Virus record (IMG/VR): IMGVR_UViG_2778261154_000007
Span: 1 to 18,507 of that record
Length of the DNA stretch: 18,507 nt
Reading direction: 5' to 3' (one strand)
Source of the DNA: a virus
Taxonomy: Duplodnaviria; Heunggongvirae; Uroviricota; Caudoviricetes
Each line of letters starts with the position of its first letter. Position 1 is the stretch's first letter. Below, one piece after another: positions 1 to 17,224 of the stretch. The notes below the pieces were generated by a model that was not told the DNA's origin, ran no database searches, and saw only the letters and a list, made by a program, of their open reading frames with translations. The position numbers and the translations under genes are program-made.

Positions 1-159
1 CCACGGGAATATCTGCGGCAGCGGGCTTGTAATGGGTTAAGTGATAACAGATGTCTGGAAATATAGGGGCAAATCCATCCGCGTGCTGATGTCGATTATC
101 TGTTTGCGCAGGTAATCGTTCATGAGCAACGTGTCGATACCACGCCTAACTGCGGCAAT

Positions 160-927: not shown

Positions 928-1002
928 AAAAATTCGTTGTCAGGATAAGGACAATCAATAAAGGACTTCTGTATGAGTCATACAGAAAGAACAGGATTTT
1001 AA

Positions 1003-2436
1003 ATGAATAAGAAATCGTTATGGAAGCTAATTCTGATATTAGCGATCCCATGTATTATTGGCTTTATGCCAGCTCCGGCAGGATTAAGCGAACTGGCGTG
1101 GGTGCTTTTTGGTATTTACCTGGCGGCCATTGTGGGGCTGGTTATCAAGCCTTTCCCGGAACCTGTCGTACTGTTAATTGCCGTTGCTGCCTCAATGGTG
1201 GTGGTCGGTAACTTATCCGACGGTGCGTTTAAAACCACCGCCGTATTAAGCGGTTACTCTTCAGGTACCACCTGGCTGGTGTTCTCGGCGTTTACCTTAA
1301 GCGCCGCATTTGTGACCACCGGTTTAGGTAAACGTATTGCCTATCTGCTGATTGGTAAAATCGGTAACACCACGCTGGGTCTGGGTTACGTTACGGTATT
1401 CCTCGATCTGGTACTGGCTCCGGCAACACCGTCTAACACCGCGCGTGCGGGCGGCATTGTGTTACCGATCATCAACAGCGTGGCGGTGGCTTTGGGGTCC
1501 GAACCGGAAAAAAGTCCGCGTCGTGTCGGACATTACCTGATGATGTCCATTTACATGGTCACCAAAACCACCAGCTATATGTTCTTTACCGCAATGGCGG
1601 GGAACATTCTGGCGCTGAAAATGATCAACGACATTCTGCACCTGCAAATTAGCTGGGGTGGATGGGCGCTGGCAGCCGGATTGCCGGGCATCATTATGCT
1701 GCTGGTCACCCCGCTGGTGATTTACACCATGTATCCACCAGAAATTAAGAAGGTGGATAACAAAACCATCGCTAAAGCGGGCCTTGCCGAACTAGGACCG
1801 ATGAAAATCCGCGAAAAAATGCTGCTCGGTGTCTTTGTGCTGGCGCTGCTGGGCTGGATTTTCAGTAAGTCTCTGGGGGTTGATGAATCCACCGTGGCAA
1901 TCGTTGTTATGGCAACCATGCTGCTGCTGGGTATCGTTACCTGGGAAGACGTGGTTAAAAATAAAGGCGGCTGGAATACCTTAATCTGGTACGGCGGTAT
2001 TATCGGCTTAAGCTCCTTATTATCGAAAGTTAAATTCTTCGAATGGTTAGCTGAAGTCTTTAAAAATAACCTGGCATTTGATGGTCACGGTAACGTTGCT
2101 TTCTTCGTTATTATTTTCCTCAGCATTATCGTGCGTTATTTCTTCGCTTCCGGTAGTGCCTATATCGTTGCTATGTTACCGGTATTTGCCATGCTGGCGA
2201 ACGTCTCCGGCGCACCGTTAATGTTAACCGCGCTGGCACTGTTGTTCTCCAACTCCTATGGCGGCATGGTTACTCACTATGGCGGCGCGGCAGGTCCGGT
2301 CATCTTTGGCGTGGGTTATAACGATATTAAATCCTGGTGGTTGGTCGGTGCGGTACTGACGATATTAACCTTCCTGGTGCATATCACCCTCGGCGTGTGG
2401 TGGTGGAATATGCTGATCGGCTGGAACATGCTGTAA
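1003..2436 (+). CDS. ybhI: DASS-family (divalent anion:sodium symporter-like) inner membrane transporter
   Basis: 477-aa ORF, highly hydrophobic with many predicted TM helices; position between ybhH-like and ybhJ-like genes. Confidence 0.8.
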   Translation: MNKKSLWKLILILAIPCIIGFMPAPAGLSELAWVLFGIYLAAIVGLVIKPFPEPVVLLIAVAASMVVVGNLSDGAFKTTAVLSGYSSGTTWLVFSAFTLSAAFVTTGLGKRIAYLLIGKIGNTTLGLGYVTVFLDLVLAPATPSNTARAGGIVLPIINSVAVALGSEPEKSPRRVGHYLMMSIYMVTKTTSYMFFTAMAGNILALKMINDILHLQISWGGWALAAGLPGIIMLLVTPLVIYTMYPPEIKKVDNKTIAKAGLAELGPMKIREKMLLGVFVLALLGWIFSKSLGVDESTVAIVVMATMLLLGIVTWEDVVKNKGGWNTLIWYGGIIGLSSLLSKVKFFEWLAEVFKNNLAFDGHGNVAFFVIIFLSIIVRYFFASGSAYIVAMLPVFAMLANVSGAPLMLTALALLFSNSYGGMVTHYGGAAGPVIFGVGYNDIKSWWLVGAVLTILTFLVHITLGVWWWNMLIGWNML

Positions 2437-2580
2437 ATATACTCGTCATACTTCAAGTTGCATGTGCTGCGTTTGCGTTCGCTCACCCCAGTCACTTACT
2501 TATGTAAGCTCCTGGGGATTCACTCACTTGTCGCCTTCCTGCAACTCGAATTATTTAGAGTATATCCATTTATTATCTTT

Positions 2581-2602
2581 CTGCGCACTTCACGGTGCGC
2601 AG
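2581..2602 (+). promoter_or_regulatory. Perfect 8-bp inverted repeat (CTGCGCAC-N6-GTGCGCAG) just upstream of the ybhJ-like start
   Basis: Read directly: ctgcgcac ttcacg gtgcgcag. No following T-tract, so more likely an operator or RNA structure than an intrinsic terminator. Confidence 0.3.
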
Positions 2603-2618
2603 ATATCTGGAGCATTTG

Positions 2619-4880
2619 ATGATCAAGTTATCTGAAAAAGGCGTGTTTCTCGCCAGTAATAACGAAATAATTGCCGAAGAACATTTCACCGGCGAAATTA
2701 AAAAAGAAGAAGCCAAAAAAGGCACTATTGCCTGGTCTATTCTCTCTTCTCATAATACGTCCGGAAATATGGATAAACTTAAAATTAAGTTTGATTCATT
2801 AGCCTCTCACGATATTACCTTTGTTGGTATTGTACAGACCGCTAAAGCGTCCGGAATGGAACGTTTCCCGCTGCCGTATGTGCTGACCAACTGCCATAAC
2901 TCACTCTGCGCCGTCGGCGGCACCATTAACGGTGATGACCATGTTTTTGGTTTATCGGCAGCTCAGCGTTATGGCGGTATTTTTGTGCCTCCGCATATTG
3001 CGGTCATCCATCAATATATGCGTGAGATGATGGCAGGCGGCGGCAAAATGATCCTCGGGTCAGACAGCCACACCCGTTACGGTGCATTAGGGACAATGGC
3101 AGTCGGTGAGGGCGGCGGTGAGTTGGTAAAACAGCTGCTTAATGACACCTGGGATATCGACTATCCGGGAGTTGTTGCGGTGCATCTGACCGGAAAACCA
3201 GCGCCGTATGTGGGGCCGCAGGATGTGGCGCTGGCTATCATCGGTGCCGTGTTCAAAAACGGCTACGTCAAAAACAAAGTGATGGAATTCGTAGGTCCCG
3301 GTGTTGCTGCGCTCTCTACCGATTTCCGTAACAGCGTTGACGTTATGACCACTGAAACGACCTGTTTAAGTTCTGTCTGGCAAACCGATGAAGAAGTCCA
3401 TAACTGGCTGGCGCTGCACGGTCGCGGCCAGGATTACTGCCAGCTTAACCCTCAACCGATGGCGTACTACGATGGCTGCATCAGCGTTGATTTAAGCGCC
3501 ATCAAACCAATGATTGCGCTGCCGTTCCACCCGAGCAACGTGTATGAAATCGACACACTGAACCAGAACCTGACCGACATTCTGCGTGAGATTGAAATTG
3601 AGTCCGAACGCGTGGCGCACGGTAAAGCCAAACTCTCGCTGCTGGATAAAGTGGAAAATGGTCGCCTGAAAGTGCAGCAGGGGATTATCGCGGGCTGTTC
3701 TGGCGGTAACTACGAAAACGTCATCGCGGCGGCGAATGCACTGCGCGGTCAATCCTGTGGCAATGACACCTTCTCGCTGGCAGTTTACCCGTCATCACAG
3801 CCGGTGTTTATGGATCTCGCCAAAAAAGGTGTGGTAGCAGATTTGATTGGCGCAGGCGCAATCATCAGAACCGCGTTCTGCGGCCCATGCTTTGGCGCGG
3901 GCGATACGCCAATCAACAACGGATTAAGTATTCGCCACACCACGCGCAACTTCCCGAACCGCGAAGGCTCTAAGCCAGCTAATGGGCAGATGTCAGCGGT
4001 GGCGTTGATGGACGCTCGTTCTATCGCTGCGACTGCGGCAAACGGTGGCTATTTAACCTCTGCCAGCGAACTTGATTGCTGGGACAACGTGCCGGAGTAC
4101 GCCTTCGATGTAACGCCGTATAAAAACCGTGTTTATCAGGGCTTTGTGAAAGGGGCAACTCAGCAACCGCTGATTTACGGACCGAACATTAAAGACTGGC
4201 CGGAATTGGGTGCGCTGACTGACAATATCGTCCTGAAAGTGTGCTCGAAGATCCTCGACGAAGTGACCACCACCGACGAACTGATTCCTTCCGGTGAAAC
4301 CTCTTCTTATCGTTCAAATCCGATTGGTCTGGCGGAGTTTACCCTGTCACGCCGCGATCCCGGTTATGTTGGCAGAAGTAAAGCGACTGCTGAGCTGGAA
4401 AATCAGCGTCTGGCGGGGAATGTCAGCGAGCTGACAGAGGTGTTTGCGCGCATTAAGCAGATTGCTGGTCAGGAGCATATTGATCCGCTGCAAACTGAAA
4501 TTGGCAGCATGGTATATGCGGTGAAACCAGGCGATGGTTCTGCGCGTGAACAGGCGGCGAGCTGCCAGCGTGTGATTGGCGGTCTGGCGAATATTGCCGA
4601 AGAGTACGCGACTAAACGCTACCGTTCTAACGTCATCAACTGGGGGATGTTACCGCTGCAGATGGCGGAAGTGCCAACCTTTGAAGTGGGGGATTACATT
4701 TACATCCCTGGCATTAAAGCGGCGCTGGATAATCCGGGTACGACGTTTAAAGGTTATGTGATCCATGAAGATGCGCCGGTAACGGAAATTACGCTCTATA
4801 TGGAAAGTCTGACTGCTGAAGAGCGCGAGATTATCAAGGCGGGTAGTTTGATTAACTTCAATAAAAACCGTCAGATGTAA
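2619..4880 (+). CDS. ybhJ: Aconitase-family hydratase/dehydratase (753 aa)
   Basis: Track ORF begins at GTG 2595, but ATG 2619 is preceded by GGAG (2608-2611) at good spacing and gives 753 aa. Glycine- and cysteine-containing motifs (GSDSHT, GCSGGN, CGPCFG) are typical of aconitase-family enzymes. Confidence 0.75.
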
Positions 4881-4892
4881 AAAGCGCCATGT

Positions 4893-5006
<114 letters not shown>

Positions 5007-5020
5007 ATAGTTAATTGCTC

Positions 5021-6304
5021 TTACTTCTTCGCCTCTGCAACCACTTTACTACCCACGCCGCGGTTATTGTATTCCCACATGCGGTTGTAGTTAGTGTCAT
5101 TCAGATTGCGCTGTATTTCGTCGTTATCATCTACGCTGCCGGTATTACCCGCAAACGGACGATTAGAGATCACCGCATCGGCCCACGGTTTAGCCGTGTT
5201 AAAACCTTCGTTGATGGCGCTATCACGGATCACCACCTGACCGTTGGTATTGGCATCAACATCCAGCGAGCGGCCCAGTTGCGCCACACCATCACCGAAA
5301 GCATTGAAACGGCTGTTTACGGCGAGGAAACCGTAGTAAATGTTGGACAGCGTAGCCGGTGCAAACACATACGCTTCTTGCTGAGTACGTGAGTTCACCA
5401 CGCGGAATTCGGTGTTATCGAACACCACTGCGCCGCGACCAGAAACGATATCCACATCCCCTTCAATGTAGCTGTTGGTCACCAGCGTACGCGGCTGACG
5501 ATTCGTTTCCAGACGGTTCTGCACACCGCTGTTGGTGACAAAGAAGGTGTTCTGACGACCGAGAATGTTAACGTTGTTAATCTGTACCTGGTCACCATCA
5601 GTACGCAGTGCCACCGCCGGATGGTTACCTGCATCTACGCTATCGCCCAGCGTGTTTTCGATGGTCAGATTTTGCAGTTGCAGGCCATTGTTTTGTGACC
5701 AGAAGACCGCAGAGCAGAGAACACCGATACTGTCGCTGCGTTTGCTCTGGCAGCTATCGTACATATACCACGCTGGTTTACCTGGCATATATTTGCCGCG
5801 CGGGTTGACGTCGTGACGCCAGTCGGCAGGGCTCATGCCACCATCAAGGGAAAGCCCAATCTTCACATCAATCGGTTTTTCACCTGTACCGTACAGAGTA
5901 ATTCCACCCGGAGCGGCAGGGACATATACCGTTCCCTGATACTCACCAGGCATCACGGCAATATACTGGCGCTTGTTGGTACGCTTGATAATTGCCGCAT
6001 CTACCGCCGCCTGAATCGTGGTATGCGTTACACCTTGAGTGCCCGCCGGGCCGACAACAAAGTCAGGTTGCGCAGGCAGGGTAATCGGGGAAGGATTCCA
6101 CGCTGCAGCACCTGGTGTCAGGGATGCAAAATAGTGTTGAGCATCGAAATTCTGCGCTTCTTTTGCCGACAGAATCGGGCGAGAAGAGGTACCAGGCGCG
6201 GTTTGATCAGAAGGACGTTGATCGGGCGGGGTTGAGCTACAGGCGGTCAGCGTCACGCCAAAAGCCAATGCCAGCGCCAGACGGGAAACTGAAAATGTGT
6301 TCAC
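5021..6304 (-). CDS. ybhC: Outer-membrane lipoprotein of the pectinesterase-like / acyl-CoA thioesterase family (427 aa)
   Basis: N-terminal lipoprotein signal with lipobox LTAC (MNTFSVSRLALALAFGVTLTACSS); 427 aa; immediately adjacent to the lambda attB core, as expected for ybhC. Confidence 0.8.
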   Translation of the reverse strand: MNTFSVSRLALALAFGVTLTACSSTPPDQRPSDQTAPGTSSRPILSAKEAQNFDAQHYFASLTPGAAAWNPSPITLPAQPDFVVGPAGTQGVTHTTIQAAVDAAIIKRTNKRQYIAVMPGEYQGTVYVPAAPGGITLYGTGEKPIDVKIGLSLDGGMSPADWRHDVNPRGKYMPGKPAWYMYDSCQSKRSDSIGVLCSAVFWSQNNGLQLQNLTIENTLGDSVDAGNHPAVALRTDGDQVQINNVNILGRQNTFFVTNSGVQNRLETNRQPRTLVTNSYIEGDVDIVSGRGAVVFDNTEFRVVNSRTQQEAYVFAPATLSNIYYGFLAVNSRFNAFGDGVAQLGRSLDVDANTNGQVVIRDSAINEGFNTAKPWADAVISNRPFAGNTGSVDDNDEIQRNLNDTNYNRMWEYNNRGVGSKVVAEAKK

Positions 6305-6340
6305 AGGTTGCTCCGGGCTATGAAATAGAAAAATGAATCC

Positions 6341-6438
6341 GTTGAAGCCTGCTTTTTTATACTAAGTTGGCATTATAAAAAAGCATTGCTTATCAATTTG
6401 TTGCAACGAACAGGTCATTATCAGTCAAAATAAAATCA
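6341..6438. other. Prophage left attachment site attL (host B arm, core GCTTTTTTATACTAA at 6351-6365, phage P' arm with Int arm-type/IHF region)
   Basis: The 15-bp lambda att core is read directly. Downstream sequence gttggcattataaaaaagcattgcttatcaatttgttgcaacgaacaggtcattatcagtcaaaataaaatcattatttg matches the lambda attP P' arm as recalled. Confidence 0.85.
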
Positions 6439-7509
6439 TTATTTGATTTCAATTTTGTCCCACTCCCTGCCTCTGTCATCACGATACTGTGATGCCATGG
6501 TGTCCGACTTGTGCCCGAGAAGATGTTGAGCAAACTTATCGCTTATCTGCTTCTCATAGAGTCTTGCAGACAAACTGCGCAACTCGTGAAAGGTAGGTGG
6601 ATCCCCTTCGAAGGAAAGACCTGATGCTTTTCGTGCGCGCATAAAATACCTTGATACTGTGCCGGATGAAAGCGGTTCACGACGAGTAGATGCAATTATG
6701 GTTTCTCCGCCAAGAATCTCTTTGCATTTATCAAGTGTTTCCTTCATTGATATCCCGAGAGCATCAACATGCAATGTTGTAGGGATGGCAATTTTTACGC
6801 CTGTTTTGCTTTGCTCGACATAAAGATATCCATCTACGATATCAGACCACTTCATTTCGCATAAATCACCAACTCGTTGCCCGGTAACAACAGCCAGTTC
6901 CATTGCAAGTCTGAGCCAACATGGTGATGATTCTGCTGCTTGATAAATTTTCAGGTATTCGTCAGCCGTAAGTCTTGATCTCCTTACCTCTGATTTTGCT
7001 GCGCGAGTGGCAGCGACCGGGTTTGTTGTTATATGGCCTTCAGCTATTGCCTCTCGGAATGCATCGCTCAGTGTTGATCTGATTAACTTGGCTGATGCCG
7101 CCTTGCCCTCGTCTATGTATCCATTGAGCATTGCCGCAATTTCTTTTGTGGTGATGTCTTCAAGTGGAGCATCAGGCAGCCCCCTCCTTATTGCTTTAAT
7201 TTTGCTCATGTAATTTATGAGTGTCTTCTGCTTGATTCCTCTGCTGGCGAGGATTTTTTCGTAGCGATCAAGCCATGAATGTAACGTAACAGAATTATCA
7301 CTGTTGATTCTCGCTGTCAGAGGCTTGTGTTTGTGTCCTGAAAATAACTCAATGTTGGCCTGTATAGCTTCAGTGATTGCGATTCGCCTGTCTCGGCCTA
7401 ATCCAAACTCTTTACCCGTCCTTGGGTCCCTGTAGCAGTAATATCCATTGTTTCTTATATAAAGGTTAGGGGGTAAATCCCGGCGCTCATGACTTCGCCT
7501 TCTTCCCAT
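6439..7509 (-). CDS. int: Lambda-type tyrosine integrase Int (356 aa)
   Basis: Translation MGRRRSHERRDLPPNLYIRNNGYYCYRDPRTGKEFGLGRDRR... matches lambda Int over its length; 356 aa; adjacent to attL. Confidence 0.95.
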   Translation of the reverse strand: MGRRRSHERRDLPPNLYIRNNGYYCYRDPRTGKEFGLGRDRRIAITEAIQANIELFSGHKHKPLTARINSDNSVTLHSWLDRYEKILASRGIKQKTLINYMSKIKAIRRGLPDAPLEDITTKEIAAMLNGYIDEGKAASAKLIRSTLSDAFREAIAEGHITTNPVAATRAAKSEVRRSRLTADEYLKIYQAAESSPCWLRLAMELAVVTGQRVGDLCEMKWSDIVDGYLYVEQSKTGVKIAIPTTLHVDALGISMKETLDKCKEILGGETIIASTRREPLSSGTVSRYFMRARKASGLSFEGDPPTFHELRSLSARLYEKQISDKFAQHLLGHKSDTMASQYRDDRGREWDKIEIK

Positions 7510-7705
7510 TTCTGATCCTCTTCAAAAGGCTACCTGTTACTGGTCGATTTAAGTCAACCTTTACCGCTGATTCGTGGAACAAATACTCTCTTCCATCCTT
7601 AACCGGAGGAGGGAATATCCTGCACTCGCGTACCCATCGACGAACTGTTTCAAGGCTCCTTGGGCGTCGCTGGCGTGCGTTCCACTCCTGAAGTGTCAAG
7701 TACAT
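7487..7705 (-). CDS. xis: Excisionase Xis (72 aa)
   Basis: Translation MYLTLQEWNARQRRPRSLETVRRWVRECRIFPPPVKDGREYLFHESAVKVDLNRPVTGSLLKRIRNGKKAKS matches lambda Xis; 23-nt overlap with int as in lambda. Confidence 0.95.
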   Translation of the reverse strand: MYLTLQEWNARQRRPRSLETVRRWVRECRIFPPPVKDGREYLFHESAVKVDLNRPVTGSLLKRIRNGKKAKS

Positions 7706-7759
7706 CGCAAAGTCTCCGCAATTACTCGCAAGGGAGCGAGTATTGGTTTATTTTCTCCA

Positions 7760-7783
7760 ACAAAAAAGGAGCCGAAGCTCCTT
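7760..7783 (-). terminator. Candidate rho-independent terminator downstream of the 207-aa AntA-like gene
   Basis: On the minus strand: GGAGCTTCGGCTCC hairpin (plus 7768-7781) followed by TTTTTTG. Confidence 0.5.
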
Positions 7784-7789
7784 TGATGA

Positions 7790-8413
7790 TTAAAATTCGA
7801 ATTGTCTCGCCCGAAGGCTTTTCAGCATTGGTTTTGCCCGTTCGAAAAGGGCGCTTGCTTGGTCAAGTCGTGTCGCCTCCCTTAGCAGTACATCTCTGTT
7901 TTTCGTCACCGTGTAAAAAGTTTCAAACGCGATGTCATACAGCTTGCTCGTGTATGATGAGTTCAGTTCCTTCAATATCGGGTACAGACGTTTGCAGATG
8001 TCCTGCGCATTCTCCATCTGTACCTGCATATAGCAAAGGAGGATGATTTCTTCGTCTGTGAATTGCTGCGCTGGTTGCATGCTGCGAAGTTTCTTTTCGC
8101 ACTCGATGAAGTATCGGCGTATCTGGCGGCCTTTTTCGTTACGCTCGACCATCGCCGTTTCTTTGGCTGTATCGAGGGTGAGGTGATAGTCTTTGCTACG
8201 GCGATCGCCTCCTCGACCTTTGATTTCCCGATTTGGGGAAACCAAAATATAGTCCTGATTTTCAACGAAACCATATTCAGCAATGCGTTCTGTAATCCAC
8301 GATGCAAAGCGTTTACCTACCCCAAGAAAAGTATGTAAATCACGGGCATTAACGAGAAGAGTTGTTTCGTTGGATATAGTGCCGTTGAATACGGGGATGA
8401 GTTGACTGGTCAT
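7790..8413 (-). CDS. Phage antirepressor-like protein (AntA/AntB N-terminal domain-like), 207 aa
   Basis: N-terminal segment ISNETTLLVNARDLHTFLGVGKRFASWITERIAEYGFVENQDYI resembles AntA/AntB-type antirepressor domains; located in the b2-proximal accessory region next to xis. Confidence 0.55.
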   Translation of the reverse strand: MTSQLIPVFNGTISNETTLLVNARDLHTFLGVGKRFASWITERIAEYGFVENQDYILVSPNREIKGRGGDRRSKDYHLTLDTAKETAMVERNEKGRQIRRYFIECEKKLRSMQPAQQFTDEEIILLCYMQVQMENAQDICKRLYPILKELNSSYTSKLYDIAFETFYTVTKNRDVLLREATRLDQASALFERAKPMLKSLRARQFEF

Positions 8414-8734
8414 TTTTATGTCCTTTGCATTTGTTCAGATAGCCCTGTGTTCAGCAGGGCGGTCAGGTACTTGAACACCGTGCAAAGTCGGCCCGTATCC
8501 TTAACCTTTCGGCTGTTTTTCGGTATACGCGCTACCCGACCATATCTGAAAAATGGACATAAAAAATCCGCATGACTGACGGGTGCGGTTTCCGCTTTGC
8601 AAGGTGTGTTCAGCACCATGAAGCGGAATATAGCCCCGTTAATGCGGTGTTGTCAAATCATGTAGGCCTTATCTTGCTGTAAGCCGCGCCATTCGGGCTT
8701 TTCCCCACATTTGGGGAAAACTATCTTGTCAAAA

Positions 8735-9517
8735 TCATGCAGCCTTTCGCCCTCCTTCGATGAGTTCCTCTATTTTGTGCACTCCAGCCTCGTTGTACCG
8801 AAATGTTTCAACCTGCTTGTCATTGTGCGCCGATTTGTCGATGAACCACTTCCCGTACTTTTCTGTTTTGAGCATGTAGGTGTTGGCTATGCGTCCTACC
8901 TTGTTGGCTGAAATACCGTAGCGCTGGCCGACTTCCGTAGCAGAGTAGTAGTGCTCTGAGATAGCTGGCAGAGGTACAACATCGCGACCAACAATCGGGT
9001 TGAACACTCCAGCTACTGCTGCCTGCTTTGATTCTGAGGACAGATTCGGGAACATATTCACCAGTCGATCCGCCACGTTCAAAGCTATTTCCATGGCTCG
9101 CGCACGGTCTAGGCTACTTTCTGGTTGCGGTACTGGTTGAGGATGGTTGGCAACCTTTTCGCGCTGATTGAAGTAGCCGTCCTCCAGTTTTTCGAACACG
9201 TCCCATGCCTGATCCGTTTCGAGCATCTTCGCGTGACGGGCGGCTCCGCGCTCTGTCCAGAGGATGAGGTGGCGTGCATTTGGGGCAATTTTCACAAAGT
9301 AGTTTAAAGCTACTTTGTGTTTTAGCGCGCGCAGCTCGTCACCAACGACCTTGTAGAAGTGTACCCCCTCAACAAAGCGCGACTTGTTTTCATGATGGTT
9401 TTGCCGGATGCGCACAACATCCGTTCCGTACAACTGCGCCAATAGTTCGCTGGTGATGACGTTGGTTTGTTTGTAGGTGATTGGTGAAAGTGTTTCAACA
9501 GAAATTTGAGCATTCAT
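8735..9517 (-). CDS. Phage regulatory/antirepressor-family protein (ORF6N/Rha-like N-terminal domain), 260 aa
   Basis: N-terminal TSELLAQLYGTDVVRIRQNHHENKSRFVEGVHFYKV resembles ORF6N/Rha-type domains; the C-terminal half is unrelated. Confidence 0.5.
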   Translation of the reverse strand: MNAQISVETLSPITYKQTNVITSELLAQLYGTDVVRIRQNHHENKSRFVEGVHFYKVVGDELRALKHKVALNYFVKIAPNARHLILWTERGAARHAKMLETDQAWDVFEKLEDGYFNQREKVANHPQPVPQPESSLDRARAMEIALNVADRLVNMFPNLSSESKQAAVAGVFNPIVGRDVVPLPAISEHYYSATEVGQRYGISANKVGRIANTYMLKTEKYGKWFIDKSAHNDKQVETFRYNEAGVHKIEELIEGGRKAA

Positions 9518-9641
9518 AGCGTCCTCACATTGGCTTTTGCATTGAAGAAAGCTTGACGGTGAACTCGCCGTAACGAGTTCAGATAAAAGAAATCCCCGCG
9601 AGTGCGAGGATTGTTATTTACCTTTGACGGCAAGTTGCAGG

Positions 9642-10172
9642 TTAGCCACGGTTAACCTCCTGCGGCGGTTCTGGTAGCTGCATCCAGTGGGTTACCTCTT
9701 TGAGATACAGGTCTTCGCCATCACCGTCATCCCAAGTGGGATTGCCATCATTAAACCAGTCGCCATATACGCCGACCTGAGTGTTGGGGATGTTTGGTGG
9801 GTAGTTGTTTTTAAAGTCAGCTGCTAACACATAGCATTGTCGCTCTCCCATTTCTGGCATTCGCTCACTACAGCTTATCCAGGCATCCGGAGTTACCGGC
9901 ACTGGCTGGGCGGTATAAAGCGGTGTTATATCTGCCCGAAAATTACATGCTTTATGCAGCCGCACCCACCGTTCGACTTCTGCTTTGTCAGAATACATAC
10001 CAGTGAACGTGTTATATTCACGGTCAATTTGCGTGAAGGTTACCTTCCACGCCACCGGCTCTGCTGTCAGCGATGCCAGAGCAATTTCATAAGCACGGCG
10101 TTCAACATTGTCTCGCACATCCAAACTGCTGATACGCTCTTTGATTTCTTTAATCAGTTCTTTGTCGTTCAC
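9642..10172 (-). CDS. DUF551-like phage protein, 176 aa (GTG start)
   Basis: C-terminal W-rich segment WISCSERMPE...VTHWMQLPEPP resembles the DUF551 domain common in lambdoid early-left regions. Confidence 0.5.
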   Translation of the reverse strand: MNDKELIKEIKERISSLDVRDNVERRAYEIALASLTAEPVAWKVTFTQIDREYNTFTGMYSDKAEVERWVRLHKACNFRADITPLYTAQPVPVTPDAWISCSERMPEMGERQCYVLAADFKNNYPPNIPNTQVGVYGDWFNDGNPTWDDGDGEDLYLKEVTHWMQLPEPPQEVNRG

Positions 10173-10252
10173 TTATGCCTCCGATTCCCGGATGTCACCC
10201 AAATCAACGCTACAATGCCAACCAGTGCAACGAGCGCAAAACTATCAAGCAT
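10169..10252 (-). CDS. Putative 27-aa hydrophobic peptide ([27 protein letters not shown])
   Basis: ATG preceded by AAGAGG; single predicted TM helix; its TGA overlaps the GTG start of the downstream gene (GTGA) and its ATG overlaps the stop of the upstream gene. Confidence 0.3.
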   Translation of the reverse strand: MLDSFALVALVGIVALIWVTSGNRRHK

Positions 10253-10748
10253 CTCCAACCTCTTTAACGGTAACTGTCTGTGCCTCCAGTTCTGCTATGC
10301 GCTTTTCTGAGGCTTCAAGTAACGCCTGCTTATCGCGTAGCGCTTCTTCCAGTTCAGCAACATGGCATTCACTATCAATAAGGTTGTTCTCTGCTGCTTC
10401 CAGCTCAACACGCAACTTCCCTACCGTTAGCGCAATTTCCTCGTTCTCCTGATCGCGGCTTTTGATGTATTGCAGGTTTCTTTCCCGTTCATCCAGTAGT
10501 GCCAGCGCAACATTTGGATTAAAAGCAGCAATAAATTCAGCGTTTGCATAAGCCTGAACATCTGTTTCAACCAGGCAGTTAACATGACATTCCGCAATCA
10601 CACCACCGGGTTCTCCTTTCCATTTTTGACAAACAAAAACTCCTGTTATATTCCCATGCTGATTGCCCGATGTATGCCCTACGATGTAGCTCCCTTTCGT
10701 TGCCTTTTCTGCCGCATCACGCAGTGCCTGGTAATTAATTTTGCTCAC
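10245..10748 (-). CDS. Ead/Ea22-like phage protein with C-terminal coiled coil
   Basis: Start placed at internal GTG 10748, preceded by AAAGGAGG at 6 nt, rather than the track GTG at 10769. Sequence [18 protein letters not shown]... resembles ead/Ea22-like family; C-terminal heptad-rich region. Confidence 0.5.
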
Positions 10749-10912
10749 TGTTTGCCTCCTTTGCGCCACATCGCATTCAGATATTTGTTTTGATTTACTG
10801 ACGGAAAAGAATTTCTCTTAAGCAATTCCTCTCTCGATGGCATTGGCTTTACGCGTTGGCGAATAATCATTTCTGCCGGAAGAATGCCGGGATTGTATGC
10901 AAGTCCTCTCAT
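10745..10912 (-). CDS. Putative 55-aa small ORF, translationally coupled at both ends
   Basis: ATG overlaps the upstream stop (ATGA) and its TGA overlaps the downstream GTG start (GTGA); the Ea22-like RBS AGGAGG lies inside it. Confidence 0.3.
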
Positions 10913-11199
10913 GATTTACTCTCCACGAACTGGTCAACGGCCATGCTAAGTGACACACCTAAAGTCTCGATATGCTGCTGAATATCCTGTAGCGTCCGCG
11001 CCTGAGATAACAGAATTTCACGGTTGCATAACTCTTTAACCAGATGCTCAAACTTGCTGTAATAACCGATACGGCTTAGTGTTTCTTTCCCTGCATTCTC
11101 ACCTTCTTTGATAATTCCTCTTTCACTAAGAATCAGGTCGTGTTTGGTTCCGGTAATAACGTATTTTCCGAGGTCGATGTTTAGCTTCATTGTTTTCAT
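10909..11199 (-). CDS. Hypothetical phage protein (96 aa)
   Basis: Start moved to ATG at 11199 ([11 protein letters not shown]...), preceded by GAGGAA at 6 nt; the longer track ORF lacks an RBS. Confidence 0.45.
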
Positions 11200-11209
11200 T
11201 GTTAATTCC

Positions 11210-11503
11210 TCAGTCATTACTGATAGCGCCATAGCGTGAGCGGTAATTACGCAGGCGCGGGTCAATTTCAGGGAAGTGGGTATATGTGGCTTTGCGGAAT
11301 GGTCGGATTGATGTCTGGTAAATTCGCTCTCGTTCTTCTTTCTCTGCAAGCCATATACAGTGGCGAAATTCCTTTTCCTCTTTCGTTTCCTGCGGTAGCG
11401 ACATTATCCGATCGTAGTTTTTTCTGAATTTATCCAGCACCTCCGATACGGAATTGCCGGAACAGCGGCGCGGGTCATCCGCACCATACAGAGGCGCTGG
11501 CAT
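11210..11503 (-). CDS. Hypothetical phage protein (97 aa), basic
   Basis: ORF in operon context between the Sak4 module and downstream small genes; weak RBS, start uncertain. Confidence 0.4.
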   Translation of the reverse strand: MPAPLYGADDPRRCSGNSVSEVLDKFRKNYDRIMSLPQETKEEKEFRHCIWLAEKEERERIYQTSIRPFRKATYTHFPEIDPRLRNYRSRYGAISND

Positions 11504-11526
11504 AATGGGAGCCTTATTTTCAGTAA

Positions 11527-12114
11527 TCAGAAAGGAGGGTAATCGTTCTGGCTGTAACCATAATCATCTGCATGATTCTGGCTTACGTTTTTAGCGCGAT
11601 TGTCTTTATCTTTGAGGCTGGCAACCATGTTGGCGATAGTTTCTGGTTGCTTGCCTTCCGACTTTTCTTTAAGGGTTTGACCTGTTTGTGCAATAAACGG
11701 GATGCGTATTTCCATCTGGTAGCTGTCTGCGCCAGTCTTTTTGTTTGTGGTTAATACTTTCTGGAGCACTAACCCGATTTTCTTTCCATGAAATTCAGGA
11801 GCAACAAATTTACTGGCGGAAACCATATGTTGCGTTAACTGCTTAATCCCAACACACCCCATCATGGCATGAACGACGTTTGCACCAAACTTGTTTTCCG
11901 TTCCGTCATTTTTCTGAACACAAACGCTAAGATATTGGATTTTACGTCCGTCGTCGGATTCGCCAGAAAGCTCAATAAATTTTGCGCCTTTTTCTGATTG
12001 CTTTAGTTCTGCTTCAGTAATGGTAATGATATGAGCGCCAGTTTCGTTAATAAAACCACCTTGCCCTGCGGTCAGTGCTGCTTCTTCGTTATAAGTAAAA
12101 ATCACGTTGCTCAT
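11527..12114 (-). CDS. Sak4-associated phage protein (possibly DUF669-family recombination accessory protein), 195 aa
   Basis: Start overlaps the Sak4-like stop by 4 nt (translational coupling); the position and size fit the partner gene of Sak4-type modules. Confidence 0.5.
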   Translation of the reverse strand: MSNVIFTYNEEAALTAGQGGFINETGAHIITITEAELKQSEKGAKFIELSGESDDGRKIQYLSVCVQKNDGTENKFGANVVHAMMGCVGIKQLTQHMVSASKFVAPEFHGKKIGLVLQKVLTTNKKTGADSYQMEIRIPFIAQTGQTLKEKSEGKQPETIANMVASLKDKDNRAKNVSQNHADDYGYSQNDYPPF

Positions 12115-12791
12115 GCGGCGTTTTCCTTAATTTGATGAACATTATTGATGCCGTAGTAATCACAAACAGTGGCATCGACGAAAGAGAGATCGTTATCAAT
12201 CTCATTGGAGTCAAACATTCCCATTGGGGATTTAACAGTGTCTGCACCGTTGTTTTTCGTGGTGAAAAAGAACTGGTCATCACGGGTAAGGGTGCGAAGA
12301 ACTATAGTAAACATGCCTTCGACAGTGATTTTCTCGTCCAGCATTTTTCCTATAGTTTTCATTTTCACGCGCCCCATAGGGGTTTCTTCGGTGTGCGCAA
12401 GAAAATAGACTCTCAGGTCATCTGGCGCATCCTGTGCAGCCTTAATCACCTCCCATGCGTGGCGGCCTATCTCAGTAAATTTATCAAACGATTTTTCTTC
12501 TGAGCGGCGCATAAACTCATTGCTCATCACATACTGGAAGTCATCAACAATAACGATTCTTTTCCCGTATTCGTGAGCACGCTTAATTACGGCAACTATT
12601 ACGTCCCATTTATCAGTGGTAACTACGGTTCCTTTTTTTGCTCTGGCATCCCATGCCAGCCAGTCTTTTGATTTAAATGGCAGCGGCTTGCCTATTGGTT
12701 TTATAAGTATTGCTTCCTCTGGATTGATATTTCTCATGCTGGTTGATTTTCCGGTGCCAGACTCACCGAGTATTAATGTCGCAGTTCCCAT
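12111..12791 (-). CDS. Sak4-like RecA-fold P-loop ATPase (phage single-strand annealing/recombination protein), 226 aa
   Basis: N-terminal Walker A GESGTGKS and Walker B-like hhhhDD (RIVIVDD); size and position in the early-left operon where lambda carries exo/bet. Confidence 0.7.
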   Translation of the reverse strand: MGTATLILGESGTGKSTSMRNINPEEAILIKPIGKPLPFKSKDWLAWDARAKKGTVVTTDKWDVIVAVIKRAHEYGKRIVIVDDFQYVMSNEFMRRSEEKSFDKFTEIGRHAWEVIKAAQDAPDDLRVYFLAHTEETPMGRVKMKTIGKMLDEKITVEGMFTIVLRTLTRDDQFFFTTKNNGADTVKSPMGMFDSNEIDNDLSFVDATVCDYYGINNVHQIKENAA

Positions 12792-12799
12792 AATTTGCC

Positions 12800-12988
12800 T
12801 CAGAATGGTAATTCGGATGGGGAGGAAAGAAACTCGCGCTCATTCATGCGCTCTCTTTGTGCCTGCCATAAACAAAGTTGTTTCTTTGATTTATCTCCCG
12901 CTTTACGCCAGTAACGAGCCTCAGCAATGTGATATTCTCTTTTTAATCGACTTAACTCTGGAGTTTTCGCCAGCTCTACCGGAATCAT
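12800..12988 (-). CDS. Hypothetical small phage protein (62 aa)
   Basis: Start set to second ATG (MIPVELAK...), which is preceded by GGAGG at 5 nt; overlaps the end of the kil-like ORF. Confidence 0.35.
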   Translation of the reverse strand: MIPVELAKTPELSRLKREYHIAEARYWRKAGDKSKKQLCLWQAQRERMNEREFLSSPSELPF

Positions 12989-13098
12989 TTTGACCTCCAT
13001 TTTTTATAGGCTTCGACGGCTTCACGAAACATCTTTTCATCGCCAATAAAAGTGGCGATAGTGAATTTAGTCTGGATAGCCATAAGTGTTTTATCCAT
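12985..13098 (-). CDS. kil: Kil-like small protein (37 aa) at the kil position downstream of cIII
   Basis: ATG overlaps the cIII stop region; translation MDKTLMAIQTKFTIATFIGDEKMFREAVEAYKKWRSK; position and overlap as for lambda kil. Not in the track as a separate ORF (below 60 aa). Confidence 0.45.
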   Translation of the reverse strand: MDKTLMAIQTKFTIATFIGDEKMFREAVEAYKKWRSK

Positions 13099-13231
13099 TT
13101 TTGGGAACTCCTGGCTGATTAAGTACGTCGATGAGTCGTTTCCATCCGTCACGTAATTTACGGGTGATTCGTTCAAGTAAAGATTCGGAAGGGCAGCCAG
13201 CAACAGGCCACCCTGCAATGGCATATTGCAT
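13091..13231 (-). CDS. cIII: cIII (FtsH inhibitor / CII stabiliser), 46 aa
   Basis: Manual translation of the minus strand: MQYAIAGWPVAGCPSESLLERITRKLRDGWKRLIDVLNQPGVPKNG, matching lambda CIII through its conserved central helix; RBS AGGAG upstream. Not in the track (below 60 aa). Confidence 0.8.
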   Translation of the reverse strand: MQYAIAGWPVAGCPSESLLERITRKLRDGWKRLIDVLNQPGVPKNG

Positions 13232-13264
13232 GGTGTGCTCCTTATTTACGCTTTAAATTGCTCC

Positions 13265-13292
13265 GTGTATTCACTCGTTGGAATGAATACAC
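13265..13292 (-). promoter_or_regulatory. 9-bp stem hairpin (GTGTATTCA-N10-TGAATACAC) in the leader upstream of cIII
   Basis: Read directly; no T-tract follows on either strand, so not an intrinsic terminator. Lies between the 207-aa gene stop and the cIII RBS. Confidence 0.35.
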
Positions 13293-13336
13293 AGTGCAGT
13301 GTTTATTCTGTTGTTTATGCCAAAAATAAAGACCAA

Positions 13337-13960
13337 CTATGCGGCCTCGGAAGGAAGTCCAATCATCTTATTCAAATCTTCTACCCGTAAAGCAGGAAGT
13401 GCTGTACTTGCTTTATCTGCTTCTTTTGGTAGCAATTCTTTGCTTTCAGGCCAAACTTCAATAAGTCGCTTAACTGTTGTGACTGAGTTCAAAGCAGCCC
13501 ATACATTTGATTCGATATCCTTTTTCCTGGCTTTAAGTTTTTGTTGCAATGCGCAGATTTCATCAAACCTTTTTGTTATTTCGTGTTCTGCGCTAAACAT
13601 GCATTTATCTCTGGTCGGAGTAGGGAGCAATATATCTTCGCCGTTGCCGTCTTTCCCATATGAATACCATCCAACCCTTCTGCCAGATACAGTCAGATAA
13701 ATTGAAGTAGAACGAACATCGCATGAGTAAAATGAACATCCCATCTTTTCAAGTTCTTCACTTATAGCTACCAACTTGGATGATAACTGATCCACTTCCT
13801 CAGTTTTCTTCTTCCCGCCAAACGCAACAACTCTGGCGTCAAGTGCAAGCTGGTTCTTTAGCTTTGTTACTTCTTCAAGTTCAGTGAACACCCCGGACTT
13901 AATTAAAGCGTTGCGTGCTATTACTTCTTTTATTCTCGTTGTTAAGCGGATTGATGACAT
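13337..13960 (-). CDS. Hypothetical protein of unknown function (207 aa) in the N-cIII accessory slot
   Basis: Start moved to ATG 13960 (MSSIRLTT...), preceded by GAGG; no TM segments, predicted helical/coiled regions; no motif I recognise. Confidence 0.55.
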   Translation of the reverse strand: MSSIRLTTRIKEVIARNALIKSGVFTELEEVTKLKNQLALDARVVAFGGKKKTEEVDQLSSKLVAISEELEKMGCSFYSCDVRSTSIYLTVSGRRVGWYSYGKDGNGEDILLPTPTRDKCMFSAEHEITKRFDEICALQQKLKARKKDIESNVWAALNSVTTVKRLIEVWPESKELLPKEADKASTALPALRVEDLNKMIGLPSEAA

Positions 13961-13971
13961 ATTAATTCCTC

Positions 13972-14298
13972 TCAAATAAGTGGTTTGCTGCCTGATTTCA
14001 TTTTCTGGCGACCAACACAAGTCACACCCATTTCACTGCGTGGCTTGCTGTACCATGTGCGCTGATTCTTGCGCTCAATACGTTGCAGGTTGCTTTCAAT
14101 CTGTTCGTGGTATTCAGCCAGCACCGTAAGGTCTATCGGATTCAGTGCGCTTTCTACTCGTGATTTCGGTTTGCGATTCAGCGAGAGAATAGGGCGGTTA
14201 ACTGGTTTTGCGCTTACCCCAACCAACAGGGGATTTGCTGCTTTCCATTTAGCCTGTTTCTCTGCGCGACGTTCGCGGCGGCGTGTTTGTACATCCAT
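13972..14298 (-). CDS. N: Antitermination protein N (108 aa) with arginine-rich motif
   Basis: Translation from ATG 14298 (RBS AGGAG): MDVQTRRRERRAEKQAKWKAANPLLVGVSAKPVNRPILSLNRKPKSRVESALNPIDLTVLAEYHEQIESNLQRIERKNQRTWYSKP... matches lambda N; the track ORF extends spuriously upstream. Confidence 0.9.
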   Translation of the reverse strand: MDVQTRRRERRAEKQAKWKAANPLLVGVSAKPVNRPILSLNRKPKSRVESALNPIDLTVLAEYHEQIESNLQRIERKNQRTWYSKPRSEMGVTCVGRQKMKSGSKPLI

Positions 14299-14455
14299 CT
14301 GGATTCTCCTGTCAGTTAGCTTTGGTTGTGTGTGGGAGTCGTAGTCCTGAACGAAAACACCCCGCAATGGCACATTGGCAGCTAATCCGGATTCGCACTT
14401 CCGGCCAATGCTTCGTTTCGTATCACACACACCAAAGCCTTCTGCTTTGAATGCT

Positions 14456-14485
14456 GCCCTTCTTCAGGGCTTAATTTTTAAGAGC
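14456..14485 (-). promoter_or_regulatory. nutL (boxB GCCCTGAAGAAGGGC; boxA-like TGCTCTTA)
   Basis: Minus-strand sequence gctcttaaaaattaagccctgaagaagggc; boxB is a perfect hairpin identical to lambda nutL boxB. Confidence 0.8.
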
Positions 14486-14518
14486 ATCACCTTTATGGTG
14501 GTCAGTGCGTCCTGTTGA

Positions 14519-14590
14519 TGTGCTTAGCATCACCGCCAGTGGTATTTATGTCAACACCGCCAGAGATAATTTATCACCGCAGATGGTTAT
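14519..14590 (-). promoter_or_regulatory. pL promoter with oL1-oL2-oL3 operators (lambda immunity specificity)
   Basis: Three 17-bp sites: cATCACCGCCAGTGGTA (14528-14544), CAACACCGCCAGAGATA (14552-14568), TATCACCGCAGATGGTT (14572-14588); -35 TTGACA and -10 GATGCT on the minus strand with 17-bp spacing. Confidence 0.8.
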
Positions 14591-14737
14591 CTGTATGTTT
14601 TTTATATAGATTTATTTTTTGCCGGGGTGTGTTGCTGGGGTTGGTGATCGAGAGATCAGAATTGCACTGTTTAGTGAGTTGTATCTATTAATTTTAAAAT
14701 AAATACAATTGGTTATGTATTTTTTTGGGGGCGTGAG

Positions 14738-14765
14738 GCAAAGAAAACCCGGCGCTGAGGCCGGG
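14738..14765 (-). terminator. Candidate intrinsic terminator downstream of the rexB-like gene (tIMM-like)
   Basis: Hairpin CCCGGC-GCTGAG-GCCGGG (14748-14765) followed on the minus strand by GTTTTCTTTG. Confidence 0.5.
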
Positions 14766-14768
14766 TTG

Positions 14769-15206
14769 CTATTTGTTTGAGAATTTTAGAAGTTGAAAAA
14801 GTATGATGCTTATATGCATCATTGATGAAGCTGACAGGCCGATCGATAAGGATGGCAACAAGGCAATTGGTTGCTTACTGGTGGCCATTAAAAACAAACC
14901 CATAAAAAAAACAATGCCAAGTTCCGCAAAGGTCAGTGCATACAGAATGATGACAGATGTCATATATCCGTAAGCCTTTACTTTTTGCATGTTTTTTCCT
15001 CTGATGCCGATGACGAATGTCAACGCGGCAATGAGTATTGCGATAGTAGTCCCTGCATATGAAGATATAGCTGCGCCCAGCGCGTCTCTGTGCTCGGTGA
15101 ACGAAATTGATGAGGCAACGCTACGGAAAATGCAGTAGACGACAATAGTTAAAAGTATTGGTAAAACGAATAGCAATACGCCGGGAACGATCCTGTGCTC
15201 TCTCAT
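14769..15206 (-). CDS. rexB: RexB-like integral membrane protein (145 aa, four predicted TM helices)
   Basis: Occupies the rexB position (between pL/oL and rexA, same strand as cI). Four hydrophobic segments (LLFVLPILLTIVVYCIF; TTIAILIAALTFVIGI; YMTSVIILYALTFAELGIVFFMGLFLMA; LSIGLSASSMMHISIILFQLL). Size is close to lambda RexB (about 144 aa). Confidence 0.6.
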   Translation of the reverse strand: MREHRIVPGVLLFVLPILLTIVVYCIFRSVASSISFTEHRDALGAAISSYAGTTIAILIAALTFVIGIRGKNMQKVKAYGYMTSVIILYALTFAELGIVFFMGLFLMATSKQPIALLPSLSIGLSASSMMHISIILFQLLKFSNK

Positions 15207-15236
15207 GCTTCCTCCATCACCCTTAGGTATTCACTC

Positions 15237-16067: not shown

Positions 16068-16198
16068 ATATCAATCCGTTATATCTGGCGTAAGTCATCA
16101 TATCGTTAAAGTACATAAAATTTCTTTTTGCGTTGATGTAATGAATGGCAGCTTGAAAACCTGCTGGTAATCCTACGCCCGGAGCACTTTTCCATCCA

Positions 16199-16915
<717 letters not shown>

Positions 16916-16919
16916 TTAA

Positions 16920-17000
16920 ATCTATCACCGCAAGGGATAAATATCTAACACCGTGCGTGTTGACCATTTTACCTCTAGCGGTGATAATGGTTGCATGTAC
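16920..17000. promoter_or_regulatory. oR3-oR2-oR1 operators with divergent pRM and pR promoters
   Basis: TATCACCGCAAGGGATA (oR3, 16923-16939), TAACACCGTGCGTGTTG (oR2, 16946-16962), TACCTCTAGCGGTGATA (oR1, 16970-16986); pR -35 TTGACC and -10 GATAAT; cro RBS TAAGGAGG. Confidence 0.85.
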
Positions 17001-17003
17001 TAA

Positions 17004-17213
<210 letters not shown>

Positions 17214-17224
17214 ATAACCCCGCT

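Follow-up and report, generated by a model that had tools for sequence, protein, structure and literature searches.

A c4-like RNA of the sRNA-Xcc1 family and its matching target sites upstream of an AntA-type antirepressor gene in a lambdoid prophage

The 18,507-nt Caudoviricetes sequence studied here (IMG/VR record IMGVR_UViG_2778261154_000007, positions 1 to 18,507, hereafter the window) contains a 320-bp spacer (8414-8734) for which no feature is listed in the RefSeq annotation. This spacer is bounded by two minus-strand genes, one for an ORF6N-domain protein and one for an AntA/P22_AR_C antirepressor-like protein (ant). We consider it likely that the spacer is a self-contained RNA control cassette for the downstream AntA-type gene, built on the design of the c4 (immI) system of phages P1 and P7. 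The original prediction, made from the letters of the DNA, had noted palindromes and a recurring GTGTTCA motif in the spacer and suggested either operators for a dedicated repressor or a small structured RNA, with a covariance-model analysis as one way to decide. The RNA half of that suggestion stood, with a match to an Rfam family and covarying helices, and the half that concerned protein operators did not.

When the covariance-model analysis was run (cmscan), an 89-nt RNA on the minus strand (8541..8453) matched the Rfam family sRNA-Xcc1 (RF02221) over model positions 1-87, its full length, with 68.3 bits compared to a gathering score of 53 (E = 8.6e-11), and by this model the window RNA is a member of the family. 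The match has the three-way junction of RF02221, in which a 9-bp closing stem P1 (8541..8533 with 8469..8461) encloses the long P2 and the P3 hairpin, with an unpaired stretch at the P3-P1 junction and the tail GCCC at the 3' end. Alignment to the Rfam structure left two non-standard pairs, both in P3. In related RNAs the helices were kept by paired changes: P3 pairs were altered on both sides in 9-18 of 42 sequences, and P1 took the form of 41 distinct fully paired helices among 101 RNAs, whereas mismatched combinations of its strands paired fully in 4.4%. P1 was judged by script on these 101 RNAs; an alignment of 42 RNAs with MAFFT and RNAalifold misaligned the P1 strands and recovered only the tip of P2 and P3. 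Directly 3' of P1, 97 of the 101 RNAs have CC. A tRNA-like closing stem followed by R-CC is what an RNase P substrate such as c4 presents, and by this analogy the RNA is probably excised from a read-through transcript. No tRNA or tmRNA was called by ARAGORN.

Two exposed segments of the RNA, one in the P3 loop (b') and one at the P3-P1 junction (a'), have exact complements nearby. There are three target copies for a' and two for b', all on the same strand as the RNA, and among them are two composites of an a and a b site that flank it, upstream at 8613..8595 and downstream at 8438..8423. The downstream b site, b2 (8429..8423), overlaps the Shine-Dalgarno sequence AAGGA of the AntA gene (8425..8421), which lies 7 nt 5' of the AUG. 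In the whole window the composite CTGAACA-N0-8-TGCAAAG occurred twice, both times on the minus strand of the spacer, and any match to it was seen in 0 of 200 dinucleotide-preserving shuffles. The heptamer CTGAACA by itself was mildly enriched in the window (6 found vs 2.5 expected), and all three of its minus-strand copies were in the spacer. The duplex between the probe and the leader had a predicted energy of -24.8 kcal/mol, which was reached by 2 of 1000 shuffles.

The same complementarity was found in related cassettes, where the RNA and its target sites change together. Two pattern scans of viral contigs gave about 240 related loci. In an RNA-anchored test, 88 non-redundant RNAs were parsed by script and scored for an exact complement of at least 7 nt. 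The P3 loop had such a complement in the upstream flank in 66% of cognate but 6.5% of non-cognate combinations, and in the downstream flank in 52% and 3.9%, respectively; for the junction segment the values were 56% versus 12% upstream and 69% versus 15% downstream. A leader-anchored test took b1 as the 7-mer before a conserved CGG in 70 non-redundant leaders. The exact antisense 7-mer of b1 was found within the RNA for 64 of the 70 leaders, and 51 of the 70 had an exact b2 as well, while non-cognate combinations matched in 5 of 2030. The b 7-mers fell into 19 distinct sequences. Almost all of the cassettes that match in all three places (49/51) have b2 ending 8-11 nt 5' of the start codon. 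As for the distances to the RNA, most b1 sites are 60-120 nt upstream of it, a1 precedes b1 by about 12 nt, and b2 comes about 26-35 nt 3' of the RNA.

Among close relatives of the window cassette the a site (CUGAACA) is constant and b is swapped in all three places, giving UGCAAAG, UCGAAAG, AUACAAG, CAGCAAG, UACAAAG, CUAGAAG and UCGUAGG; the first five of these were seen in E. coli cassettes that are otherwise nearly identical. In other cassettes the a1 loop covaries with the junction segment of the RNA, as for CUCAAAA with UUUUGAG in phage P13374 (locus L002), and an a site displayed in a hairpin loop 3' of the RNA, equivalent to a2, is present there too. The association with antirepressor-type genes is likewise a property of the family. 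Members of sRNA-Xcc1 lie directly upstream of ant, antB or Rha genes, at differing genome positions, in phages P13374, 2851, phiSTEC1589-Stx1c and Aaphi23 (Aggregatibacter), and inspection by eye found that each of the four has its own a' and b' with matching flanking sites. A scan of 77 open reading frames (ORFs) downstream of cassettes returned P22_AR_C (24), KilA-N (19), Bro-N (17), P22_AR_N (11), AntA (11), Rha (9) and ORF6N (7).

Some loci of the collection depart from the common layout. In one (L127), b1, b' and b2 are mutually mismatched, and the cassette looks like a hybrid or recombinant. In another (L199), promoter, leader and RNA are intact and the sequence 3' of the RNA is unrelated, so that the cassette is cut off from its target gene. 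Four loci (L142, L153, L154 and L220) have the same class of leader and terminator followed by other three-way-junction RNAs, with their own complementarity between b' and b1, and then a gene start. The RNAs of L142, L153 and L220 had no Rfam family match at E <= 0.1 (L154 lay outside that scan), and from their layout the four may possibly represent uncatalogued c4-like RNA families.

Upstream of the RNA, the spacer has a near-consensus sigma-70 promoter, TTGACA-N18-TATATT (8656..8627, minus strand), with 11 of 12 consensus matches, and the spacing would place the transcription start near 8620. A TTGACA-type promoter is present at the equivalent position in related cassettes. No LexA box (CTGT-N8-ACAG) was seen at the promoter on inspection by eye only. 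The leader that follows contains a1 in a small hairpin, then b1 and then a terminator-like hairpin with a 5-bp stem, an 11-nt loop and A + U6. The stem of this hairpin covaries between cassettes (CCGCA/UGCGG, CCAAC/GUUGG, CCAC/GUGG) and the U-run after it is conserved in the 70 leaders. Termination at this point would yield a short RNA of about 55-60 nt, and read-through would yield the 89-nt RNA and the ant mRNA. The coordinates of all these elements are collected in Table 1.

Table 1. Features of the spacer and its flanking genes in the window.
Feature	Position	Strand	Basis
-35 hexamer TTGACA of the cassette promoter	8651..8656	minus	consensus scan
-10 hexamer TATATT	8627..8632	minus	consensus scan
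a1 hairpin GGUG-CUGAACA-CACC, loop showing site a1 (CUGAACA, 8613..8607)	8603..8617	minus	folding
b1 site UGCAAAG, complement of the RNA P3 loop	8595..8601	minus	inverted repeat I2
Terminator-like leader hairpin CCGCA-N11-UGCGG (8588..8568), then A + U6 (8566..8561)	8561..8588	minus	folding
Anti-Shine-Dalgarno strand UUUUUAUGUCCAUUUUUCAGAUA, predicted partner 8441..8413	8543..8565	minus	inverted repeats I1, I4
89-nt c4-like structured RNA (Rfam RF02221, sRNA-Xcc1)	8453..8541	minus	cmscan
b' antisense segment CUUUGCA, P3 loop	8481..8487	minus	inverted repeat I12
a' antisense segment GUGUUCA, P3-P1 junction, first two bases within the P3 stem	8472..8478	minus	inverted repeat I13
a2 hairpin GCCCUG-CUGAACA-CAGGGC, second a site in the loop	8442..8460	minus	folding
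Composite target CUGAACA (8438..8432)-AA-UGCAAAG (b2, 8429..8423)	8421..8438, including the Shine-Dalgarno sequence	minus	sequence
AntA/AntB + P22_AR_C antirepressor-like gene, 207 aa, AUG 8413..8411	7790..8413	minus	Pfam AntA 3.6e-27, P22_AR_C 1.2e-09
ORF6N-domain protein gene, 260 aa	8735-9517	minus	Pfam
18-codon antA/antB-type gene relic FSPNVGKSPNGAAYSKIR, not part of the switch	8667..8720	minus	sequence match

Two further features of the cassette were followed across the family. Both the loop CCCGNCAG of the leader hairpin and the CGG found after every b1 remain conserved where the terminator stem, P1 and P3 all differ (8561-8595 in the window, L002, L005 and many of L098-L236). No pairing partner was found for either, and the antisense model leaves both unexplained. 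Pairing of the CCCGNCAG loop with the 5' strand of P1 was considered and rejected, the complementarity being inconsistent across subfamilies. An antiterminator, with GCGG-AAA-CCGC competing with the terminator and RNA binding at b1 extending into the GCGG, was also rejected as a general mechanism because the CGG after b1 is constant while P3 and the terminator stems vary, and because some terminators lack CCGC. The other feature is a predicted helix between the strand at 8565..8543 and 8441..8413, which would sequester the Shine-Dalgarno sequence; it has a duplex energy of -20.3 kcal/mol, and the 221-nt fold has z = -3.67. Across the family the duplex energies of cognate and non-cognate combinations were alike (p = 0.24), and this helix was therefore rejected as a family-wide feature and kept for the sub-lineage of the window only.

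These elements account for repeats that had first drawn attention to the spacer. What recurs as the GTGTTCA motif is an antisense segment within a structured RNA plus the three copies of the target of that segment. Two of the targets are displayed in hairpin loops, and their stems are the palindrome GCCCTG-N7-CAGGGC, found where it had been reported (8442-8460), and the small hairpin at 8603-8617. The direct repeat TGTGTTCAGCA was confirmed at 8446-8456 and 8605-8615. The inverted copy TGAACAC and the hairpin CCGCATGACTGACGGGTGCGG are both real, with corrected positions of 8472-8478 (not 8471-8477) and 8568-8588 (not 8566-8586). To these we add features that had been missed: TGTTCAG occurs a third time, at 8432-8438; CTTTGCA, at 8423-8429 and 8595-8601, forms another repeat family, whose inverted copy TGCAAAG lies at 8481-8487; and 8413-8426 forms a 14-nt inverted repeat with 8552-8565. 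The remaining hairpin, TTCCCCA-CATT-TGGGGAA, is present at 8701-8718 as described and its palindrome extends to 8699-8720, but it is probably not a regulatory element, as it lies inside the 18-codon relic of an antA/antB-type gene.

Taken together, we propose the following course of events for this locus. Transcription would start near 8620 from the promoter at 8656..8627, and some of it would end at the hairpin and U-run of the leader (8588..8561), giving a short leader RNA with a1 and b1. The remaining transcripts would continue through the 89-nt RNA into the ant mRNA, and the RNA would probably be cut from the read-through transcript, perhaps by RNase P as for c4. The P3 loop and the junction segment of the RNA could then pair with CUGAACA...UGCAAAG on ant transcripts, with a first contact at the CUGAACA displayed in the loop of the a2 hairpin. 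In the final state b' would cover the UGCAAAG that overlaps the Shine-Dalgarno sequence, and translation of AntA would be blocked. The a1-b1 sites of the leader may serve as a decoy or feedback site that titrates the RNA, or may couple RNA binding to termination.

The closest precedent for such a switch is c4 of phages P1 and P7, a processed antisense RNA from the ant operon of which two loops pair around a ribosome-binding site and block ant expression, and in which matched changes in c4 and its sites lead to heteroimmunity (PMC12197685, PMC8201110). Like c4 (RF01695), the window RNA is a small three-way-junction RNA on the same strand and apparently in the same transcription unit, just upstream of an antirepressor gene, co-transcription being suggested here by the gene order. 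It shares with c4 two exposed segments (a', b'), site pairs both upstream (a1, b1) and downstream (a2, b2), a b2 site on a ribosome-binding site where it would block translation, and a closing stem with R-CC after it, like that of an RNase P substrate. In both systems specificity differs between related phages by matched changes in RNA and target, as read here from the sequences. The two also differ. The window RNA belongs to RF02221 and has no match to RF01695 even at E <= 10, its P1 is short (9 bp compared to about 17) and its P2 is long with a conserved internal loop. Its b2 covers the Shine-Dalgarno sequence of ant itself, whereas P1 has the icd-type coupled ORF that is missing here, and 3' of the RNA a hairpin loop displays one more a site. 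The P1 system is carried by a plasmid prophage; the carrier here is a lambdoid prophage that has a CI-type repressor, and no C1-type operator was identified. By analogy, the window RNA would work in a c4-like manner, but its RNA family is another one: C4 is placed by Rfam in clan CL00128, and sRNA-Xcc1 has no clan listed there.

A second precedent is the isrK-orf45/STnc1160-anrP locus of Gifsy-1 in Salmonella (PMC4825925), which has a promoter, a short leader that ends at an intrinsic terminator but is partly read through, then a processed RNA that is stable, and finally an antirepressor-like gene, all of which are predicted here in the same order. As in Gifsy-1, leader and processed RNA are complementary to each other, and no translation is predicted from the read-through mRNA. 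The differences are that the leader here has no match to the isrK model, that the RNA is of the Xcc1 rather than the C4 type, and that the effect demonstrated in Gifsy-1 is activation by the short IsrK through translation of orf45, whereas no conserved ORF is present here. Against the Rfam isrK model (RF01394, gathering score 50 bits) the leader (8620..8561) gave no match at E <= 10, and the likeness is one of position and architecture only. True isrK and C4 pairs do occur upstream of another antirepressor-like gene in P13374 and phiSTEC1589-Stx1c, in tandem with the Xcc1-type cassette; in both (L002, 1908-3014; L003, 2057-3171) isrK + C4 come first and are followed by the sRNA-Xcc1-type RNA upstream of antB2 or Rha.

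The CI RNA of P4 (seqA/seqC) and the CB RNA of N15 are also processed small RNAs, and the transcript that contains the gene of each has repeated sites complementary to it on either side of that gene. Lytic or anti-immunity functions are under their control, in N15 CB antirepressor genes (cited in PMC3632133), but the CI RNA of P4 differs in that it acts through premature transcription termination and on replication genes; both are likened to the window RNA here by description only. Barquist et al. grouped P4, P1, P7 and N15 as an 'IsrK-C4' type and noted similar elements in lambdoid prophages (PMC3632133). The window RNA falls, above the curated threshold, into the same covariance-model family as sRNA-Xcc1 of Xanthomonas campestris, which is described as an integron-cassette, trans-acting RNA controlled by HrpG/HrpX and for which no cis targets are reported. 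Unlike this description, complementary flanking sites and an antirepressor-type gene are found here and in about 100 phage cassettes. In temperate phage P22 the sar RNA (immI) is likewise an antisense RNA that limits antirepressor synthesis. Its template is the other strand of the arc-ant region, so that sar and its target are complementary throughout, while the window RNA is on the same strand and matches through two short segments. The literature searched, which did not include the original 2011 description, mentions sRNA-Xcc1 only as a trans-acting, virulence-linked RNA of Xanthomonas and Xylella or in lists from annotation pipelines, with no link to c4. In one such Rfam-based annotation, of Xylella fastidiosa De Donno, C4, isrK and sRNA-Xcc1 stand in a row (PMC12189769).

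Strong expression of a member of the family is on record in enterohemorrhagic Escherichia coli (EHEC). In strain EDL933, an 89-nt sRNA-Xcc1 was reported among the most abundant small RNAs, with about 25,600 reads per kilobase per million (RPKM) and a ribosome coverage value of 0.02 (PMC5331693). Our scans place an sRNA-Xcc1-type cassette with b = CAAAUAAG in this genome (L241, NZ_CP008957.1, about 1,394,600-1,394,900, minus strand), upstream of an Ant gene whose product resembles the window AntA at its N-terminus, in a prophage remnant next to rutG. The cassette is probably the source of the abundant RNA of that RNA-seq and Ribo-seq study, a link made by proximity only. No cassette was found near int of phage 933W.

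Several observations weigh against the proposed switch or limit how far it can be taken. The sequences themselves show the elements, the family match, the complementarity and its covariation in three places, the placement of b2 on the ribosome-binding site and the gene association; that the promoter is active, that transcripts terminate and are processed, and that AntA is repressed is what we infer for this locus. Folded in isolation, the 89-nt RNA has no unusual stability (z = -1.04), and the minimum-free-energy structure departs from that of Rfam in that P1 is not reproduced. Rfam C4 (RF01695, gathering score 45 bits) had no match at E <= 10 in 8300-8850. The energy of the duplex with the downstream target is not significant by itself, being reached by 126 of 1000 shuffles, and ant does not stand out when every translation start of the window is scanned for duplex energy. 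A simple terminator scan, restricted to loops of 3-8 nt, made no call at the leader hairpin, whose loop has 11 nt. There is no icd-like coupled ORF, unlike in P1, and no conserved ORF between the RNA and ant. The match of L241 to the published EDL933 coordinates is one of proximity, as the assemblies differ and the offset is about 2.6 kb. The equivalent locus of Gifsy-1 works through activation by the short leader RNA (PMC4825925), and the net sign of regulation in vivo could thus be more complex than repression.

Energy-based prediction of targets was rejected as non-discriminating, with ant not top-ranked and the ORF6N gene's 5' untranslated region average. The latter spacer, upstream of ORF6N at 9518-9641 (minus strand), includes a hairpin that resembles a terminator and has a U-rich tail, as well as a 7-bp hairpin GAACUCG-N6-CGAGUUC, and it matches the a and b sites at 6 of 7 positions (CUGAAC, UGCAAA). 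Its duplex with the RNA is average, at -13.9 kcal/mol, and the matches are probably due to chance.

Other readings of the spacer keep the RNA and give it a different role. The RNA could act mainly on transcription, as in P4, with pairing to nascent a1-b1 and/or a2-b2 favouring termination at the leader hairpin and U-run or in a Rho-dependent manner; this would form a feedback loop that limits both the synthesis of the RNA and ant transcription, and it may coexist with a block of translation. We regard this as a real if minority possibility, given that a1-b1 lies directly 5' of a conserved terminator-like hairpin in every cassette and that the CI RNA of P4 works in this way through seqA and seqC (PMC4825925 summary, PMC3632133). 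The position of b2 on the Shine-Dalgarno sequence, with its tight spacing of 8-11 nt to the start codon, points instead to translation, and no covarying pairing ties RNA binding to terminator formation, the CGG after b1 being constant while the P3 stems differ. It is also conceivable, though unlikely, that the short leader RNA acts in trans as IsrK does, titrating the c4-like RNA and/or opening the helix between the Shine-Dalgarno sequence and its complement, and so turns AntA translation on. The layout is that of Gifsy-1 (promoter, terminated leader, processed RNA, antirepressor gene), the leader has perfect mimics of the mRNA target, and the -20.3 kcal/mol helix sequesters the Shine-Dalgarno sequence in the read-through transcript of this sub-lineage. 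However, the Rfam isrK model finds no match in the leader, the helix is not conserved in the family (p = 0.24), no conserved ORF like orf45 is present, and activation of this kind supplements the antisense model rather than replacing it. Very unlikely, in our view, is a purely trans-acting RNA with host genes as targets and an incidental position next to ant, as has been proposed for sRNA-Xcc1 of Xanthomonas and Xylella, where the literature treats it as trans-acting and virulence-linked (PMC2996969, PMC12189769). Additional host targets are possible, but no better target was found within the window, the flanking complementary sites covary in three places with 19 specificities, and nearly every cassette is linked to an antirepressor, KilA or Bro gene.

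Two readings dispense with the RNA. Operators for a DNA-binding repressor of ant, the other half of the original prediction, would fit the palindromes and repeated heptamers near a gene start, and ant of P22 is controlled by the protein repressors Mnt and Arc. Yet all copies of GTGTTCA/TGAACAC are 3' of the promoter in transcribed sequence; one orientation is in an unpaired segment of a conserved structured RNA and the other in hairpin loops and next to the ribosome-binding site. The stems that carry the a loops differ (GGUG/CACC and GCCCUG/CAGGGC) while the loop is identical, which fits RNA hairpins and not DNA sites. Across cassettes a and b vary independently of each other, each always together with its own antisense copy. 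Such joint change of RNA segment and target copies is predicted by RNA-RNA pairing and not by a protein operator, and operators are therefore unsupported and highly improbable. Finally, a small protein can be drawn in the spacer, a 67-aa ORF (8416-8619, minus strand) with its stop 2 nt 5' of the AntA start codon, which could be translationally coupled to AntA, and orf45 of Gifsy-1 was reported at the equivalent place (PMC4825925). We give this almost no credence: the ORF has no Pfam match, close relatives lose the start codon (AAG or CAG), indels in the P3 loop shift the frame, and the AUG is at or before the predicted transcription start. The earlier statement that the spacer has no convincing ORF thus holds, the 67-aa frame not being conserved in close relatives.

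The part of the spacer next to the ORF6N gene has a different origin. Over 49 nt the relic FSPNVGKSPNGAAYSKIR shares 98% identity with a stretch inside an annotated antA/AntB coding sequence in enterotoxigenic E. coli (ETEC) H10407, and most of about 600 partial matches in E. coli genomes cover only the relic stretch (8667-8720). The palindrome TTTTCCCCACATTTGGGGAAAA (8699-8720) is inside it, and the hairpin at 8701-8718 is not followed by a U-run on the transcribed strand. The AntA protein of the window has an alignment gap exactly at the position of the relic piece. A CATGATTTGACAA-like sequence is duplicated at 8650-8662 and 8727-8739 (repeats D1 and D5), one copy lying over the ORF6N stop codon and the other over the -35 hexamer of the promoter. 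This duplication looks like a recombination joint that brackets the antA/B relic.

The window itself is a lambdoid prophage adjoining ybhC, with its early-left operon on the minus strand. The spacer is 100% identical in E. coli FDAARGOS_943, where int, xis, cIII, kil, N, a LexA-family (CI-like) repressor, cro and cII are annotated, and a 98%-identical copy of the cassette is present in many Stx2a-converting phages. In FDAARGOS_943 (L001, 7110-9000) the AntA gene is split by IS600, and the control cassette is thus kept beside a dead target gene. The lambda cIII thermoregulator (Rfam RF01804, 88.5 bits) at 13186-13244 on the minus strand of the window is a known element and orients the prophage map.

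Antirepressors decide whether a prophage stays silent. A c4-type switch accounts for the unannotated 320-bp stretch of a cassette that occurs in lambdoid E. coli prophages, including Stx2a-converting phages, in which prophage induction drives toxin production. The b code can be read from sequence, and it predicts which prophages would be cross-immune at a second layer of immunity; the cassettes also form a set of natural, orthogonal RNA-target pairs. Beyond the window, we lean towards the view that the whole sRNA-Xcc1 family is a second large lineage of c4-type phage immunity RNAs, with its own leader class and dozens of interchangeable a'/b' codes, gating antirepressor, KilA-N, Bro-N and Rha genes in phages of gamma- and beta-proteobacteria, and that the same leader class also drives the RNAs of L142, L153, L154 and L220. 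If this is true, the readings of sRNA-Xcc1 homologs in Xanthomonas and Xylella in terms of host targets and virulence need revisiting, and we suggest that sRNA-Xcc1 calls from annotation pipelines be read as markers of phage antirepressor control. The class of mechanism has been known since the work on P1 c4 in 1990 and its principles are unchanged; what would be added is a modest insight at the level of the family, namely that sRNA-Xcc1 is a c4-like immunity RNA.

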